From Dictyostelium discoideum (taxonomy: Eukaryota): a stretch of 64,000 nucleotides of DNA. The DNA is taken from NCBI GenBank assembly GCA_000004695.1, contig CM000152.2:1600001-1664000 (forward strand), written 5' to 3'. A program made the position numbers and the translations under genes. Below the pieces are notes generated by a model that had not been told where the DNA came from, ran no database searches, and saw only the letters and a list, made by a program, of their open reading frames with translations. Below, piece after piece: positions 1,965 through 58,913 of the stretch; the first letter of the stretch is position 1; every line of letters begins with the position of its first letter.

Positions 1965-4051
1965 TTATTGTAAACTTGCTAATTCCATTTTAGTATTAAT
2001 GAATTTTTGTTCTAAAATGGTGTAATCATTTTCCATTATTTTCTTTTCAGATTTTAATTTTTCGATTTGATCCAATAAGCCTTTGATATAGTCATCTCTC
2101 TCTTGTTCAGCGAGTACAGTTTGAGTGAGAGTGGTTGTTTTCTTTATTAATTCTTCTTCAATATTTTTATAGGCCTGAGCGTTTACTCTTCTATTGGTAT
2201 CAGTAATTTTAATAATACCTTTTGGTTGATAAGAATGATCAATAGTGAAATCATTTAAAATACCACCATAGGAAGGATCTAAAGTTTTTGAAGATTTTTC
2301 ACCCAATAAAATTTCACAATTACCAAGTTCAACACCCCATTTAATGTTCATATTTACCTTTTTAATACTTTTTTGGATATTCTTGATCTTTCCTCTCTTT
2401 CTCTCTACCAAACCAACGACTTTTGTAATGAAATTTTTAATATCGGGCATTTTAATTTTCTTTCCAAAAGTTTTTGACTTGAGTGGTTTTTTAAAACCTG
2501 GTGGATATCTCTTTTTCATCACTCTAACTTGAGTACCTTGAAGTTTAACCCAAACATCGGTAACCCAATCATCAATTTCTTTATCGATTAATACTGATTG
2601 TTTAGCTACATCTTTTTGATGTCTTCTTTTGTAGGTGATTAATAAATTTGTATTATCTTGATTTGTGGCTGGTATTAATTCATCCTCTGGAATTGGTAAT
2701 GGTCTAAGTATGGTTGAGGTTGATAATTTTGGATGATCAATACCGTAGGCTTCAAAGGTACCAATCTTAAATACAATAGTTTGACCAATATCATTATTTT
2801 GTAAAATAATACCCATTGATTGAACTTTAATTTGACTTAAAATATCACCACCACCACCACTACCACCACTACCACTATTGTTTACATTTTTATTGATAAT
2901 TTCATCAGGTATAATCGATGTTTTTGCTAAACCACCAATAATTGTATCAATAACACCACCAATAATTTGAGTTGGAGGTGGTGGTTGATCATTTGATGCT
3001 GATGAAATTGGTGAATCTAATGAAATTGTTTCATTTGTAAAGGAATCATCATCTTGCTGTTGTTGCTGTTGTTGTTGATTATTTTCTTCATGAACATCAT
3101 TATCATGTTTTTCTTTTGGTTCTAAAAGATGTTGAAGTGGTAAATGGAAATCCCCATTTTGAATTGAGATATAAGAAGTCCAAAAATATTGTTGTAAAGT
3201 TTTCTCAACCTTATTCTTTATGGTTAAAGTTTTATCCAATTTCTTTTGTTCCAATGATTTTAATCTTTTCTTTGCCTCTTTAGAGATTCTGGATTTCAAT
3301 AGATTTTTTAATTTCTTTGGTGATAAATATTTATTTGCAACGAAATCCAATAACTCTGAATGTTGTGAAGTCAATTTGAAATTGAAATCTGAAGAGATCA
3401 ATGATAAATCAATCTTTGGTATTCTTTTATTGTTTGCCAATAGATGATCATGAGATCTTGAGATACGAGTGAATAAACTAATGGTTGCAGGCTCTAAAAT
3501 GGTAGTGATTGTATTATCATGATCAACATCAATGACTCTCAATGAAACATTCTCCATTTGAAATGAGAACCTATGATCTAAACCAAATTGTGAAATTATA
3601 TCTTGTGGAGCTATTGGTGTGGTGTTATTGATATTATTAGTTGTCATATTAATTAATTGAATACCATCCATTAAGAAAGGAACTGTCTTCCAATCACTAT
3701 GATTACACATTACAAATGATTGTAAATTAATTTGTAGTCTTAAACCTCTAAATGATTCATCAACATTTTCTCTCTCCTCTGGTAATATCAATTGAGTATT
3801 GGTTGCCTTTAAAATTATCTTTATTTGACTCTTCCAATTATTTGATAATTTTAATTTTCTCTTAAATGTATTAATTTTCTTTTTACTTTTTTCAATTACT
3901 GATTTTTTATTTTCATCATTATTAATTTTATCTGATGTATCTTTTTCAATTTTTTCATTTTCATTTATATTATTATTATTATCAATACTATTATTATTAA
4001 TATTTTCATCGGTTGGTTTTTTACTATTATTATTATTATTATTATTATTAC

Positions 4052-38887: not shown

Positions 38888-42613
<3,726 letters not shown>

Positions 42614-42948
42614 TATTACTTAAAAAAAGAAAAAAAAGTAATATTATTATATGTTACTAATAAATTTAAATAAACAAAATAAAAAAAACAAAAAAAAAAA
42701 AAAAAAAAAAGAAAAAAATTAAAAAAAAAAAAAAAAAATTCACTTTTCTTGGAAATTTGATGATTTTTAAATTCTAAAAATAAATCTTAAAATTATTTTT
42801 TGAAATTTAGAAATGTTTAAATATGGTTTTTTTTTTTTTTTTTAGATAATTTTTTTTTTATTTTTTTTTTAAATTTTTTTTTTTTTATTTTTTTTTTTTT
42901 AAAATTATATATTTTTTAATTTGTTTTTTTTTTTTTTTTGTTTTAAAT

Positions 42949-46735: not shown

Positions 46736-47008
46736 ATGACAGATATAGAAATAAAAGAAAATGAAGAAAACATAACTATAATTAATATAGGTATTGAAAT
46801 TATAGTGAATGAAAGATCAAATGCATTATTCAACACATTAAAATCAAATATAGAATCATTTATAAAGCAACGACCAAATAAAGAGAATGAAATAATTCAA
46901 ACACTTTATTCATTGAACAATTCATTGGAAAGAGCAGTTAAATATTTCGATTATCCTGATAAATCAATTGATTATTATAAAATTATTTTATTAGGAATAT
47001 CTGATAAA

Positions 47009-47054
<46 letters not shown>

Positions 47055-48284
47055 GTAATAATACATTTCATATTAATTATCAAAATAAGGGTATTATACC
47101 TACGATACCAATTAAATTTCAAATAAATTATCAAACATTTATATATAAATTATCAACAGAACCACCACAAAGTGAATTATCTGATGATTTAGAAACTTCA
47201 CCACCCTATCAACAATTAGTTTTACCAAATAAATCAATTGAAACACTTTGGGAAAAGTATTTTTCATTCATCATCCCTAATTTTCATTTAATAAATTATT
47301 TTTACTAATTATTTATTATTATTAATAAAAAAAAAAAAAAAAAGTTTAATTTATGAAGATGGTTTAAAATCAAAATTATTATCATATATGTCAACATTAA
47401 TTGTAAGAACAAATTTATATTATTATAAATTTATATTATTATAAAACTATTAAAATTTTTTTTTTTATTTTTTTATTTTTTTTTTTTATTATTATTATTT
47501 TAGTTATTTTCAAAATTTAGAATAGATTCAAATATTGTATCAAATAATAAAGTAATATTTTTATATGGACCACCAGGTACAGGTAAAACAAGTTTAGCCA
47601 AAGCATTAGCGCAAAGAATATCGATTGTATATAGGGATAGATATCAATTTTCACAATTGATTGAAATTAATACTCATAGTTTATTTAGTAAATGGTTTTC
47701 AGAGAGTGGAAAATTAGTGATGAAAATGTTTGAGAATATAAAAGAGTTATTAGAGGACCAAAATTGTTTTGTAATGATATTAATTGACGAAGTTGAAAGT
47801 TTGGCAGCAGCAAGAAGTTCAGCAATTAACAATGGTACAGAACCAAGTGACTCGATTAGAGTGGTGAATGCATTTCTAACACAATTGGATCAACTAAAAC
47901 AATATTCAAATGTTTTAGTTGTTGCAACTTCAAATATAACGAAAGCGGTTGACCTCGCCTTCATTGATCGTGCCGATATTAAACAGTTTATTGGACCACC
48001 ACCAATCGATGCAAGAAAAATACATCTTTCAAACTATATTCACTGAATTATCAAATAAAGGTATACTAACATTAGATTATGAAACATTGGATACTCAATT
48101 AATATCATTATCAAATTCTACTGAAAACTATAGTGGTAGAGCCATTAGAAAATTACCAACCGTAGCATTATCATCTCATATTGCCTATACTCAATTTCCA
48201 ATTCATTCAAATAGATTCACTTGTATCTTATTAGATTTTATTGAAAAAAATAATTTATCAAATAATCAATTATTAAATGAATAA
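46736..48284 (+). CDS. TRIP13/Pch2 AAA+ ATPase homolog. Exons are 46736..47256, 47345..47402 and 47504..48284. An apparent +1 frameshift in the A5 run at 48016-48020 interrupts the frame.
   Basis: Exon joins reproduce the human order LWDSLVYDVEVKSHLLDYVMTTLLFSDKNVNSN as LWE|[20 protein letters not shown]|[10 protein letters not shown]. The donors are AA|GTATTT at 47257 and ATT|GTAAGA at 47403. Walker [44 protein letters not shown], Walker [12 protein letters not shown] and sensor VVATSNIT are present. After [11 protein letters not shown] the conserved continuation (K)[14 protein letters not shown]...[14 protein letters not shown]..., compare human IFKIYLSCLEEL...LSGRVLRKLPFLAH, is in the +1 frame. 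Frame A ends ...HLSNYIH* at 48046. Confidence 0.75.
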
Positions 48285-48377: not shown

Positions 48378-48403
48378 TATTTTTTATTTTTTTTTATTTT
48401 ATT

Positions 48404-50743: not shown

Positions 50744-51480
50744 CTTTGTTTTTATATAAAATTTAAATAAAAAAAAAAAAAAAAAAAAAATGAAATTGAA
50801 ATAAAAAAAAAGTGAAAAAATTTTGTTTTAAAAAAAAACTGAAAAAATTGGAAGAGCAAAACTACAAAATTTAATCCACAAAAAAAAAAAAAAAAAAAAG
50901 AAAATTAAATAAAATTAAATAAAAAAAAAAAAAAAAAAAAGAAATCAATTAAATATAAAAAAAAAAATATATTAAAAACTGGAATTCAATTATTTTTCCC
51001 ATAATTTCACAATTAAAAAAAAAATAAAAAAAATAAAAATAAAAATAAAAAAAATATTAAAAAAACAAAAAAAACCGTGGTTTGATATTATTTTATTTTA
51101 TTTTTAACTTTATTTTATTTTATTTTATTTTATATTGTTTTATTTTGCTTTATTTTATTTTTATTTTTTTATAAAATATCATCCAATTACATGATGGTGT
51201 AATATTTATTAACCACACCCCATTCCTAAAAGTCTGGTAGATTATCTGACACAATTACCATCATTTTTTAATTTTTAAATTTTTTTTTCATGTTTTTTTT
51301 TCAAAATTTCATTTTTTTTTTATTTTTTTTTTTTTTATTTTTTTTGAGTTTTTTTTTTTGAGTTTTTTAATTTTTAACAAATAACTGCATTTACATCTCA
51401 AATTATTTGTACACCAATAAAAGTTAGTGTTTTTTTTTGTGTGTGTGTGAGTGTGTGTTTTGTGGAAATATATTTAAAAA

Positions 51481-51606
51481 ATGGATCCATCAAAAGAGGC
51501 GATTCTTTTTGAATATATACCAAAAGTATTATTTGCAAAACCTCAATTAAATGGTGAAAAACCGCAAGCAACAACAACAACAACAACAAATGGTAGTAAC
51601 AATAAT

Positions 51607-51696
<90 letters not shown>

Positions 51697-52333
51697 AATA
51701 ATAATAATAATAATTCCAATGACGAAGGTGGTGTTATTATGACCATTATGTTAAATGGTGATTGTTTTTTTTATCCAACAAGTGCAGATTTATTGGACCA
51801 ATTACCAGACGTTTTCATGAATAATACAAGTCAAATCAATTATACATATAATAATAGTAGTAGTAGTATGAACTCTATAAATAGTGCAGTTAGTAATAGT
51901 CTCAATAGTATTAATAGTATCAATAACAATAAAAATGGAGCAAACGCAGGAACGACAGGTGCAAAGAAGAATAATATGAAATCGAAATATAATATACCTT
52001 TACATTTATCACCAGAATATAAAGTTTATGCTTTTGATTTTAAACATTTAGATCCAAATGAACCATTTGTATATAAACCAAATACAACACATGTTTCAAC
52101 TGATTCAAAGAAAACTAATAACAATAATAACAATAATAATAATAATAATAATAACCAACAAGATTTTTTTATACCAATTAGATTTAGAAAACCAAGAAAA
52201 TTATTAGTTAGTCATGATAAAAAATTATTAATGATTATTGGTGCAACTATTAAAGGTGTTAGTAGTTTAACAATGTAAGTATTTATATATATATATATAT
52301 AAATATTTATAAAAGAAATTTCTTTTAAAAATT

Positions 52334-52371
<38 letters not shown>

Positions 52372-53295
52372 TATTTTTATAAAAATAGTTATAAAATTTT
52401 AAAAGAAGGACCAAATTATTTTCAATTATTATTTTATGATACAAGTTTTACATATTTAGATGCATGTTTTACATCAGATTCAACAGCAATGACATCAATT
52501 TTAGCGAGATATCCAAATTTTATATTCATATTACAGATTCCAGGTATTCAAAGTAAACCTAGTGTTTGTAATTCACATCCAAATGATCCAGTTGTCAAGG
52601 ATACAGAAAAGGATTCAAGATTAATTGATACAATCGATTATCAAGAGAAGAGGGTAATATTTGAACCAAGAAAAATTGGACCACTTGCAATTGTTGGTCC
52701 AGTTAAGAATTGTTTAGGTCAACCTTATCATATGACACATATAGCTTCAAATCCAAATTTGTTTCCTGATAAAGTTAAAGCATTTGAATTTATTACTTGG
52801 AATGATGATAATATAGGTGAATGTTGTTTTTGGAATATTTTTAAAGATCAACAATCATCTCATGGTATTAGTAGTGGTGGTAGTGGTAGTGGTGGTAGCA
52901 ATAAACATGGTGGTAGTGGTGGTGGTAGTAGTGGTGGTGGTGGTGGTGGTGGTGCTAATAATCATCAATCACCATTAAGAAATATTCCGTCATTAAAATT
53001 TGAGTGGATGACAAAATTTGTAGGATCAATTGTACCAGATAGAGCATGGATAGAAAAAGAATCATCACCAAAGACTCAAATCATTGATATGATTTTCTCA
53101 CCACATGGTGATTTAATAATGACTGTTGTCAAAAAAGAAAACCATGATCATAAAAATAAATCATCAAATGGTATTGGATTTCAATGTATTCCATCGACTT
53201 TGGAATTATTGAATTTTAATAGTCCTACTGATAACAGCAACAGCAGTAATACATCATTATCAAGTAATAATAATAATAATAATAACAATAATAAC

Positions 53296-53352
<57 letters not shown>

Positions 53353-53885
53353 AGTAATTATAATCAATATAATTTTAATAATAAAATTAATAGTTATAAG
53401 ATTGGTAATCAAAATAACCCAATATTAAGTAAAGGTATGATTGGTGGTGATTTAACGAGTTCATGGTTTCAAATATCGGAATCATTCGATAAGAGTATAA
53501 TTTTATCAAGTAAATGGACAGATTCATTATTTTTTGGTGGATCATCTCAATTATTACCAAGTGTATTGGTAAAGGATAAAGGTGTCTATGAATTAGTTTC
53601 AAATAACTATTGTGCTCAATTTACAAATGCTTCAGAGGAATTTATGAAAACTTGTGTAAACTTTATTCAATTAGGTAAATATCATAGATTATGGATATCA
53701 TGTTATGGTACTCTCTACTCTATTACAATGACTCCAAAGAATGAAAAATTCATTGAATGGATTCCCACTGTCTTTGAAACTCTACCTCAAAATTCAACTG
53801 CTCGTTCAAATAATTTATCTCATTCAAAATATTTTAAAGTTTCTCAAATGATTGGTTATTCTTTAATTGATTTTTCAAAAGGTAA

Positions 53886-53945
<60 letters not shown>

Positions 53946-54895
53946 TTTATCTTATATATATTTATATATTAACTTTTTCTTGTTATCATATTATAATTTG
54001 GATAAAAAAAAATATATATATACATATATTATTATTATTATTAGAATTTAAACCAGAAATAAGTACAAAACATTTAAATAAAAAGAAATTGGAAGATTTA
54101 TTAGCAACAATTCAATCTACAGGATCAATTGCAGAGAGATCAGGAAAAGGTGACGCTGAAATTTATGCTTGCTTACATTTATATAGATGTTGGAGTTGTA
54201 AACAGACCTTAATGAAACCTTTAATTTGTGGTTATTGTAAAACTGTTGCTTATTGTTCAAAAGATTGTCAAAAAGATCATTGGCCAATTCATAAACCATC
54301 TTGCACCCCTCCTATCTTACCATTATTAGTTCATCAACATAATCAACAGCAACAACATCAACAACAACAAATTCAACAATTACAACAACAAATTCAACAA
54401 CAACATCAACAAATTCAACAACAACATCAACAAATACAACAAACTAGAGAAAAGGAAAGACAACAACAACAACAACAACAACAACAGCAGCAGCAGCAGC
54501 AACAACAACAACAAAAACAACAACAACAACAGCAACAACCACCACAAAAACAACCACAACAACAACAAAAACAACAAAAAAAATCAGAGGAATCATTAGA
54601 AGAACAATCAGAAGATCAATCAGAGGATCAATCTGAAGAACAATCAGACCAATCTGATGATCAATCATATTACCAATCTGATGCTGGTGAAGTACCATTA
54701 CGAGTACGACGACCATTGGCCCTAAAACAGGTTCATGGAAAGTACCAACAAGCACACCTACAACAAATGTTGAAAGCAGGATTACTTTCAAATAAGGTGA
54801 GTGGGTTGGAAGGTACTAACTCTGTTGGAAAAGAAGAAGGTAGTAATAATATTACATTTACAAGACATATTACAGGAAAAGTAACTCAGAATTAA
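51481..54895 (+). CDS. MYND-type zinc-finger protein, about 1045 aa, with a Q-rich acidic C-terminus. Exons are 51481..52274, 52389..53881 and 54045..54895.
   Basis: Exon A MDPSKEAILFEYIPKVLF...GVSSLT plus AT ends at a GTAAGT donor at 52275. After a 114-nt intron, acceptor AAAATAG|T joins (I)YKILKEGPNYFQLLFYDTSF...ARYPNFIFILQIPG in phase with the ORF at 52489. Donor AAAG|GTAAAT at 53882 and a 163-nt intron containing (ATT)n lead to acceptor TATTAG|AA and (E)FKPEISTKHL.... The MYND finger reads CLHLYRCWSCKQTLMKPLICGYCKTVAYCSKDCQKDHWPIHKPSC, followed by (QQQ)n and SEDQSEDQSEEQSDQSDDQS. Confidence 0.65.
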
Positions 54896-57800
54896 AACAA
54901 AAAAAACCAAAAAAAAAAAAAAAAAACAAAAAAAAAAAAAAAAAGAAAAAACATAAACAAAGATTTAAAAAATAAAATAATTATACATTTATTTATTTTA
55001 TAAAATATAATTATATATATTGCATAATTTTATCAATTTATTATTATTGTGTTGTTTGTTGTTTATTGTTGGTTGTTGTTTACCTTTTCAAGAAATTGTC
55101 TGGGCCAAATATATAATAAATAAAAAAAAAAGATTAAATAAAATTAAAATATTTTATTATTATTTTTGTCTTTAGCATATTTTTTTTATATTATTTTTGT
55201 TTGAGGAGGGTACTCCACTTTAAATAAAAAATCCAAAACTATTTCAAATTGGACCCTACCATCAATGGAAATGATCCTAATCAACAATATAAATAATAAT
55301 AAAATTTTTCTTTTTTTTTTTGTTTAGTAATAATAAAATAAAGAGTTTTTTTTTTATATTCTATAAATTAAATTTTTATTTTTCAAAAACACATTATTTT
55401 AAAGAATTTAATAAAATTTAAACTTTCAATAAAACGTTCTAAAGATTTTAAAATTTCATTTATAAATAAAATTTTTAATATTTCGGACAAAATTTACTAT
55501 TATATATTAAAATTTTAAAATCAAAATTAAAATATGATGGTGTTAAATGTAAAGAAGATGGTAATGTGATTGTAGTTGTTGCAGTTTTAGTTAATGGTGT
55601 AATTTTAATTTTATATTTAAAAATTGTTGTTTTTAATTCTTAAACCTAATCGATATACTGGAAAACCAGTATTTCCTATGGTTATCATTTATCTCTATAT
55701 ATTTTTTTTGAAAGTAAAAAAAAAAAAAAAAAAAAAAAACAGATAAATAATTTAATAACAAAAACGAATAAAAAATAATAAAAACAGATAAAGATTTTTT
55801 TAATTTAAATCCATTTAAATTTATTTTTATTAAGTGTTAAATAACACACCAGAATTAATTTAAATTTTTTCTATTTATTTTTTTTTTTTAATTATACAGT
55901 AATAAATATTATTTCCCAAATAAACCCTTAATTTTATAATTATTATTATTATTATTAATATTATTATTATTTAATTTATTTTTATTATTATTTAATATTA
56001 TTATTATTTTATTTTTTTTTTTAAAAAAATATATTTTGAATAATAAAATAAATTATAAAATTTAAAAATAAAGCTTATTCAAAAATATTTCTGTTTTAAA
56101 AAATAAAATTTTAAATCAAATAATCAAAAGTCTTTGTTGTCTTTTGTTTTTATGGTCCAAGTAATTCTTATGAAGGAAGGGTTTAGTGTAGAGAAACTGT
56201 ATAAAAAAATTAAAAAAAAATTATTATTTTAAAATGGGGGGTAGTTGATAAAAATGATTATTAATTTTTTTTTTTTTTTTTTCTAAACAATTTTATTTAT
56301 TTTATTTTTTATTTTATTTTTAAATTGTTATTTAATTCAATTATTTTTGTTGTTTCAATATATGTAGAAATTAATAATCATTGGTTTTTGGAAATTTTAA
56401 CTATAGTTTCAAAGTTGGTTGTAAAAACATTAGGTAGAAGTTTTTAATAGATTCACAAAAGATAAAAACTTCATTTAGGGGGTAACAAGTATAAAAGAAA
56501 AAGAGTTTGGCAGGTTTAATTAATGTAATCTTTTTTAAGGTTCCAACACCCTAATCAATAAAAAAACAAAAAAAATTCATATATCCAAACATACACACAC
56601 TCACACATTCACATTTTACCAAGATATATGATTATATGAAGTGTGGTTTAAAGTTTAAAAAAAAAAAAAAAAAAAAAAAAGAAAATTGTACAAATCAACA
56701 CTAACAAACACACATTACCACAAAATCTTTTGTTAATCTCTAAGATATTTTTAAATAATTTAAAAATTTAACCCACTAAACATAGTTTTTTAAACAAAAA
56801 TTTAAAAAAAAACACAAAATTCACTATGAATAAATAGCAATATATCTCATTACTTGAATCATTTTTTAAATTTTAATCTATTTTTATAAAAACACCATAT
56901 AATTATCTAGATTTGGTATTGTTAAAAAACACATAACTGACCACAAATGTTAAGAATCAAAAAAAAAATTAATAAACAAACCAAATTTAACAATTTTTTT
57001 ATTTTAATAAAATAAAATAAAATAAAATATTAAACTATTTAAATCATTGATCTTTTTATTTTTTTTATTATTCCCATCAAAATATTTAAAACTACAAAAC
57101 AAAATAAAATAAAAAATAATAAATCAAATATAATATAATAAAATAAAAATAAAAAAAATAATTCAAAATTAAATAAATAATTAAATAAATAAATAATTAG
57201 ATAAAAAAAATAAAAAAAAAAAAAAACAAAATTTTTTTTTTTTAATAATAAAAAGTTAACAGGAAAAAGTATATTTAAATAAACAAAAAAAAAAAAAATT
57301 ATTTTAAAAAAAATGTCTTTATTAAGTAAGTATTTTTAAATAAATCACATGTGTATTAATAAATTATTTTTTTTTAATTAAAAAAATTTAAAAATCTAAT
57401 AATTTTTTTTTTTGTTAAAAATAGAATCAATCACTTCATTAAATTCAATTTCAAAAAAATCAAATTCCAATAATATAGTAAATAATAACAATAAATTTTT
57501 ACACAATTATTCAGAATCATCAACATCATGGTGTTTAATATTCCAATACACAGGAAAAAAGACTTTCCTTGCATGTATTTGAAATAATAATAAGAATTTT
57601 AATAATAATAGTAATGATAATAATAATAGTATAAAAATATAGAAAAATAATTTTGAAATCAATATAATTTTAAAAAAATTTGACCGATATTGTATCACCA
57701 ATGATAGTAATTAATATATATTTAATAATTTTAAAAATAAAAATTTAATTTTTTATAAAAACTTTTTTTTTTTTTTTTTTTAATTAAAAAAAACTATTAG

Positions 57801-58913
57801 ATAATTTTAATTCTTTTTCTACTATTTTATATCCCATTATAACCAACCAGTAAATTTTAAGGAGTAGAAAAATGTTAATAAAAACAAAAAATATTTTAAA
57901 AATTAATTTATTGGAGAAAATAAAATTTTTTAAAGGAATAATGGTAATGATAATTTTATTAATAATGTTAATTCATCCTCTTTCTGGGATTTTAATCTTT
58001 TTTAAAGACCAGCTTTTCCCAATGCAGTTGCAACATTAAGGAGTAAATTGCTTACAAGACCTTCTGAAATTTTATTTTGAGTGAATTGAGTTGTGGTGTC
58101 AGATTTGTTGACATCATTTGATTTGTTTAAGTTGTTAACTTTTGAAATTGAGGAGATTGAAGCTATTAATTATTAAAAAAAATTAGAATTAATAAAAATA
58201 TACATATTTTTTTTTTTGAAACTCTAATTTCATTTTATTAATAATTACTATAGAGCATTTTAAAATATTGATTTGTTTTAATAGGTTGATTTAATGGATA
58301 TGATAATGTTTAAATTTACTCAAATTTATATTAAAAAATTTAGATATTAAAAAAAAGAATTTAAAATTTAAAAATATTAAATATCAAAAAATAAAAATTA
58401 ATTGAAAACATTGATTTACAAATATTATCCTTAATATTTGTAAATTAATTAATTACCACTAAGAAATGGTTTTGATATATTTATGCATATTAAATTGTTG
58501 CTTTTGTTTAGATTAATACTAAATAACAATTTAAAAATAAAAATAAATTAAATTTGTAATTTAAATTTTTTACCACCAAATTAAGTGGGGTATCTCATTT
58601 TCTATACTTCTATTTAAAATTTATATTTAATCAATATCATTTTCAGTATCAAACCAATTGGGGGATATTAAAAACCAATTGATATTTTAATTTCCCCCAA
58701 TATCTAATCTTATTTAATGTATTATTTATAAATATAAACTATGGAGATATGTTTTTTATTTAAATTAATATATTTTATTTATTTATGATAATATAAAAAA
58801 GAGAATAATAAAGAAACACTGTAGAAAAGATTAATGATTTTATATTTTCAAACATTTTTTTTTATTTATTTTTTTTTTAAAAAAAAAAAAAAGAGAGTTT
58901 TTGTTAAAACGTT

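Follow-up and report, generated by a model that had tools for sequence, protein, structure and literature searches.

A surplus adenosine that breaks the TRIP13/PCH2 reading frame in the Dictyostelium discoideum AX4 reference is probably a sequence error

Introduction

Human TRIP13 and Caenorhabditis elegans PCH-2 (PDB 6lk0, 5vq9, 4xgu) are hexameric AAA+ remodellers of HORMA-domain proteins. [quoted passage not shown] The gene described here lies in a stretch of 64,000 nt of the Dictyostelium discoideum genome (the window), the base composition of which is ~75% A+T. Once its reading frame is repaired, its product resembles human TRIP13 and PCH-2 in possessing the Walker A and Walker B motifs, the PF23242 lid and the SGRxxRKLP sequence, while the Pfam model for the N-terminal domain, which most other matches carry, is not among the best 25 of its 46 Pfam matches.

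Genes in which two overlapping frames jointly specify one collinear protein are known from programmed +1 frameshifting (antizyme, yeast EST3 and ABP140, Euplotes), and the window shares with them both this arrangement and a slippery-looking A run at the junction. In the known cases, however, the shift site is kept across species, a stop or hungry codon is present and a stimulator is often found, whereas here the shift is missing in every relative and no stimulator was seen. Single-base homopolymer errors in draft and Sanger-era genomes, which give rise to falsely truncated gene models, provide another parallel. As in the window, such cases involve a mononucleotide run whose length is off by 1 nt in a single sequence, an intact downstream frame, a sister-strain assembly that does not carry the change and other low-quality calls nearby. 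They differ from the window in that the run here is short (5 nt) and coding, where such errors are less usual; Sanger sequencing does not typically falter at five identical bases within coding sequence of moderate GC content. Relative to intact D. discoideum alleles, the window carries one additional A at 48016–48020, and the length of a poly-Asn tract differs by strain.

Results

Structure of the gene and origin of the allele

The TRIP13/PCH2 gene consists of three exons at 46736–48284 on the + strand, according to the open reading frame list and splice reconstruction. Its features are as follows.

46736–47256, + strand: exon 1, with the ATG at 46736, encoding the divergent N-terminal domain and ending 3′ in the split codon AA|
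~47010–47057, + strand: poly-Asn (AAT)n tract in exon 1
47257–47344, + strand: intron 1, 88 nt, GT...AG
47345–47402, + strand: exon 2, placed by splice reconstruction and alignment to human TRIP13
47403–47503, + strand: intron 2, 101 nt, GTAAGA...TTTTAG
47504–48019, + strand: frame-A part of exon 3, encoding the large AAA+ domain and ending at Lys365 (AAA 48017–48019)
48016–48020, + strand: A5 run, with one A in excess of every other genome examined
48044–48046, + strand: premature TGA in frame A, which terminates the 373-aa product of the reference annotation
48021–48284, + strand: +1-frame part of exon 3, encoding the small AAA (lid) domain, with the stop TAA at 48282–48284

Splicing out intron 1 yields a protein collinear with human TRIP13 (...LWDSLVYDVEVKS...). 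The small AAA (lid) part includes the conserved SGR(A/V)(I/L)RKLP motif, home of the presumed sensor-2 arginine. Proteins of the discoideum type span 442–452 aa; the poly-Asn tract comprises 16 Asn in AX4 and AX2 and 7 in CR116C.

The neighbouring methionyl-tRNA synthetase gene (metRS) encodes, when spliced, a 736-aa protein identical to EAL67895.1/XP_641872.1/Q54X95, labelled D. discoideum AX4, and the spliced translation of TRIP13 as it stands (373 aa) is letter for letter the entry 'Dictyostelium_discoideum_DDIS009649_TRIP13' (PMC5579357 Dataset EV1). Because both products match public AX4 or D. discoideum models, the window carries the AX4 reference allele; the locus probably belongs to chromosome 3. 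The gene order eIF3c–TRIP13–metRS is common to the window and the wild D. discoideum strains CR116C and OT3A, and no frameshift was found in the neighbours eIF3c and metRS. Elsewhere in the window, two long + strand ORFs (52489–54051 and 53867–54895) overlap in different frames; the 3′ end of the former is poly-Leu/low-complexity read-through, and the AX2-like assembly described below has a single 1045-aa gene annotated across ~51482–54896, so that this overlap most likely reflects an ordinary intron and not a second frameshift.

Family membership

By homology, the window gene is a TRIP13/Pch2 AAA+ ATPase. Residues 211–357 match Pfam PF00004 (AAA; E 2.2e-26), bit scores against PDB sequences are 279 for TRIP13, 235 for PCH-2 and ~102 for Cdc48/p97, and beyond Dictyostelia the top database matches bear the name pachytene checkpoint protein 2 homologue. 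The C-terminal SGR motif aligns with human LSGRVLRKLP, and its Arg would correspond to the sensor-2 residue (PCH-2 R385, PMC4439613). The N-terminal ~130 residues are divergent and contain the poly-Asn insert, and the PDB alignment begins at residue 135. PF23563, the TRIP13 N-terminal domain, was not among the best 25 of 46 Pfam matches (E up to 1) and is missing from the precomputed domains of all dictyostelid matches.

The frame break and the coding nature of frame B

The first-pass annotation of this DNA had proposed that the gene needs a +1 shift in the A5 run, with the AAA+ motifs in frame A, the TRIP13 C-terminal domain in frame B and no intron between them, and each of these proposals is borne out. 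Bases 48011–48025 read GCA AGA AAA ATA CAT, which puts the run at exactly 48016–48020. Frame A holds Walker A (GPPGTGKT) and Walker B (ILIDEVESL); after Lys365 it continues as IHLSNYIH and reaches the TGA at 48044–48046, so that the deposited sequence specifies 373 aa, composed of 365 homologous residues and 8 out-of-frame residues. Frame B (+1) is open from 47949 to the TAA at 48282–48284, and removal of one A gives a collinear protein of 452 aa. The frame break is truly present in the deposited AX4 reference sequence.

Several comparisons bear on whether frame B is coding. From base composition, the chance of an open stretch of 88 codons is ~3e-4. The frame-B piece alone matches Pfam PF23242, the TRIP13-like AAA+ lid C-terminal domain, with 28.0 bits (cut-off 27; E 2.7e-6), while within the full repaired protein the same model scores 24.3 bits, under the cut-off of 27. 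In a phmmer comparison against PDB sequences, the repaired protein aligned with human TRIP13 (6lk0; E 5.9e-82) in one unbroken alignment of residues 135–425, which spans the junction. Pairwise comparison of the frame-B part between strains gave 48 synonymous and 18 non-synonymous differences. Judged by its sequence, the frame-B stretch is genuine coding sequence. The repaired protein, human TRIP13 and eight dictyostelid orthologues all share an IGPP-to-EL spacing of 20 residues, and since it is constant, the window has exactly one surplus nucleotide.

Two other accounts of the junction were rejected. Chance similarity of frame B is ruled out by the PF23242 match, the PDB alignment across the junction and the synonymous excess between strains. 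A tiny intron joining the frames is ruled out as well, because the true introns of the gene are 88 and 101 nt long and relatives read straight on at this point.

The junction in other strains and species

In a search for homologues, intact proteins were recovered from D. dimigraforme and from four discoideum-type assemblies, two of wild D. discoideum and two of cf. discoideum, and the corresponding DNA was retrieved. All four discoideum-type genomes have GCAAGAAAATAC (A4) at the site, and relative to them the surplus A is the sole indel throughout exon 3. In D. dimigraforme the site reads AGGAAGTAC (GCC AGG AAG TAC) and in D. purpureum AGAGAATAT (GCA AGA GAA TAT); both lack an A-run and continue in a single frame to the normal C-terminus. 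Altogether, the protein is encoded in one frame in 7/7 other genomes examined. The extra A is private to the window sequence and is not a species feature. The first-pass annotation had considered that orthologues might also terminate here; at the genome level this is false, as the DNA of the relatives reads through in one frame.

The wild TRIP13 alleles of CR116C (445 aa) and OT3A (442 aa) are ~97% identical to the repaired window protein and have the same exon structure. Against the four wild genomes, all four codon changes private to the window in exon 3 are synonymous, two of these lying beyond the shift, and no other indel or stop was found in frame B in this comparison. Such lack of decay would be compatible with an artefact as well as with a mutation of very recent origin. 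The same counts do not describe an established, decaying pseudogene.

The seventh genome is the assembly GCA_054883475.1. Its CM142509.1 (6.43 Mb, chromosome-scale) likewise encodes the exact metRS protein, and the locus there is 99.87% identical to the window across 12.3 kb and 99.80% across 22.3 kb. It carries GCAAGAAAATAC, that is A4, at the site, its annotated gene has 452 residues and the spliced translation is exactly the repaired window protein. The accessions and species names of the comparison assemblies match a project, apparently BioProject PRJNA1300491, that produced ten Nanopore + Illumina de novo assemblies, the laboratory strain AX2-214 among them (Holland et al., PNAS 2025, PMC12745789). 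From its near-identity to the window and the project description, GCA_054883475.1 is most likely AX2-214, which is the only isolate of that project expected to be nearly identical to AX4. If so, a natural polymorphism of the wild isolate NC4 is ruled out as the source of the extra A, since AX2 has A4.

Reference-private differences around the gene

The axeB deletion-insertion is identical in AX2 and AX4 (PMC4374526), which implies a common axenic ancestor, and the true divergence of the two strains should therefore be minute. Per site and generation, AX4 acquires 2.5e-11 substitutions and 4.9e-11 indels, and its deletions are 4.5 times commoner than insertions (PMC7466956). From these rates we estimate that any one gene would gain a true private 1-nt insertion with a chance of roughly 1e-4. 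On our own assumption that AX2 and AX4 split ~10^4 generations ago, expected true differences amount to far <1 per 22 kb. In fact, the window and the AX2-like assembly differ in 33 blocks in 22 kb, mostly in long A/T runs or low-complexity sequence. At 48016, 51236, 55148, 56496 and 56608, the positions for which comparison with wild CR116C and OT3A allows a decision, AX2 shares the state of these two strains and only the reference deviates. Besides the A5 run, these reference-private differences are the following, all non-coding.

51236–51237: GG in the reference versus A; AX2 matches the wild strains
55148: A in the reference versus T; AX2 matches the wild strains
56496: A in the reference versus T; AX2 matches the wild strains
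56608: T in the reference versus C; AX2 matches the wild strains

Position 57914, also non-coding, is G in the reference, T in AX2 and A in the wild strains. Within the T/A-rich intergenic stretch 56510–56575, the reference differs at ~25/65 positions while AX2, CR116C and OT3A mutually agree; this garbled 65-nt stretch, 8.5 kb from the A5 run, has the appearance of poorly called reference bases, not of mutation. The reference-private differences nearby are overwhelmingly errors, being far too frequent for true mutation.

Within ~14.5 kb of coding sequence, A5 is the lone difference between the reference and AX2, apart from a shift in TAT-repeat register at 41872/41945; the remaining differences are non-coding, mostly in low-complexity runs. 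The register shift lies in a gene at ~38900–42616 (minus strand), where the reference and the AX2-like assembly place a 12-nt TAT/TTA repeat block ~70 nt apart while remaining equal in length. Either the repeat register differs within this coding sequence, or the alignment produced an artefact there.

Discussion

The extra A in the AX4 TRIP13 gene is probably a base-calling or assembly error in the Sanger-era reference. For this particular base we infer as much from its surroundings: the reference-private differences are overwhelmingly errors, and by base rates the TRIP13 A is thus much more likely to be an error than one of a handful of true AX4-private indels. The first-pass annotation had left sequencing error, a pseudogenising insertion and slippage-dependent expression unranked; sequencing error emerges as the best supported of these, since the near-identical AX2-like assembly and all six other relatives examined are without the extra A and the reference is demonstrably error-prone around the gene. 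A real insertion would have to be very recent and private to AX3/AX4, and slippage finds no support.

The main competitor of a reference error is that A5 is real and arose as a 1-nt insertion in laboratory stocks of the AX3/AX4 line once this had separated from AX2, truncating TRIP13 to 373 aa. We consider this unlikely. The base does stand in the deposited reference, the 373-aa model has been distributed, and the gene shows no further decay, as expected of a mutation only decades old; moreover, the indel hotspots of AX4 mutation-accumulation lines are chiefly homopolymeric A:T runs (PMC7466956). Against this, the prior is very low, given a recent shared axenic ancestor, ~5e-11 indels per site per generation and insertions as the minority class, and reference-private differences nearby exceed what real mutation would produce, some of them being plain base-call noise. 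AX4 TRIP13 of any length was not found in a collection of 15 billion proteins, in which the adjacent AX4 metRS (XP_641872.1) was found. This would fit curators treating the locus as a pseudogene, and the locus may since have been re-classed in this way in the annotation, which would explain the missing protein. In an assembly-derived collection, the exact 373-, 452-, 129-, 111-, 91- and 208-aa products were not found, nor is the 108-aa first-ATG product of frame A on record there; that the first-ATG ORFs of frame A (108 aa) and frame B (91 aa) have no record while metRS contigs do counts weakly against a real A5. The latter contigs, Logan SRR26869258_3367800 and SRR26869267_4953728, derive from lab-type D. 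discoideum and are 99.4–99.8% identical to the window; both end at 48378 in an AT-rich spacer, 26 nt past the metRS stop, and so miss the TRIP13 3′ end by ~95 nt. An exact-pattern metagenome scan that allowed A4 or A5 gave 0 matches, and a literature search for a Dictyostelium TRIP13/Pch2 pseudogene or for estimates of reference error found nothing specific. If A5 were real, the truncated protein could be made, because the stop lies in the last exon and the transcript would be no target of exon-junction-dependent NMD. The frame is lost where the small AAA domain begins, and the 373-aa product lacks this entire domain, including the SGR motif. As the hexamer contacts involve the small domain, which also supplies the sensor-2 arginine, truncation would be a loss of function, to judge from C. 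elegans PCH-2 (PMC4439613), and the 373-aa product is probably a non-functional ATPase. That AX3/AX4 are natural TRIP13 truncation mutants while AX2 is intact, perhaps with some full-length protein made by +1 slippage on A-AAA-A, we likewise judge improbable.

Slippage as the normal route to full-length TRIP13 from a real A5, whether by +1 movement of ribosomes with tRNA-Lys on A-AAA-A or during transcription, is very improbable. A P-site tRNA-Lys on AAA 48017–19 could re-pair perfectly with AAA 48018–20, and the +1 frame is intact. Yet the site is not conserved, being A4 in AX2 and four wild genomes and having no run in D. dimigraforme and D. purpureum; there is no slow or stop codon in the A site, where the next frame-A codon is ATA and no stop follows until 8 codons on; and the 100 nt downstream fold with an MFE of −6.8 kcal/mol, no better than shuffles (z = 0.17). 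Transcriptional slippage is appreciable only at A-runs far longer than five. Equally hard to credit is that A5 is the true state and the long-read comparison assemblies under-called the homopolymer. All of them come from Nanopore-based projects, and Nanopore reads tend to shorten homopolymers, but A4 is present in five independent assemblies and gives a gap-free alignment to all TRIP13 orthologues, and the assemblies of the project also drew on Illumina reads (PMC12745789). Furthermore, the protein is encoded in one frame even in D. dimigraforme and in the older D. purpureum assembly (GCA_000190715.1), where the site contains no homopolymer, so that under-calling cannot account for the difference.

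[quoted passage not shown] By homology, the intact enzyme would remodel HORMA-domain proteins. D. discoideum is represented in p31comet.fa and Mad2.fa of the kinetochore dataset of van Hooff et al. 2017 and has no entry in HORMAD.fa (PMC5579357), and HOP1 is reported lost in Dictyostelium (PMC6263441). The presence of p31comet and Mad2 together with the absence of HORMAD and HOP1 suggests a role in Mad2 cycling rather than the pachytene checkpoint, and the Dictyostelium TRIP13 substrate is probably Mad2, engaged via p31comet, and not meiotic axis proteins. The first-pass description of a meiotic checkpoint gene was right about TRIP13/PCH2 identity, while the meiotic label appears too narrow.

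The truncated 373-aa model has been used as 'D. discoideum TRIP13' in comparative work (PMC5579357 Dataset EV1), and its influence may extend further. The D. purpureum GenBank model ('partial', 349 aa; GL870946.1 2501–3615) ends in ...KARE, aligned to AX4 K365, while the D. purpureum genome stays in frame for ~90 codons further (~3616–3880) to a normal TRIP13 C-terminus. Because the D. purpureum annotation employed homology-seeded predictors (PMC3188802) and the endpoints match, the AX4 truncation may have been copied into this model. The Cavenderia fasciculata orthologue (358 aa) stops soon after the junction (...ELIKKNLIKQDSNNKKLK) and has no SGRxLRK motif; this model, too, may be truncated.

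The main value of the finding is practical, namely correction of an annotation. With the base corrected, or with the AX2-214 model in its place, Dictyostelium would have a normal TRIP13 with a lid domain and the presumed sensor-2 arginine. Should A5 prove real instead, AX4 and AX2 would differ in a spindle-checkpoint and HORMA-remodelling enzyme, which would matter for comparisons of mitotic and sexual phenotypes. This would be an unrecognised genetic difference between workhorse laboratory strains, affecting Mad2/p31comet dynamics and possibly the sexual cycle, and it would concern the lineage (AX3/AX4) from which the reference genome and many published mutants derive.
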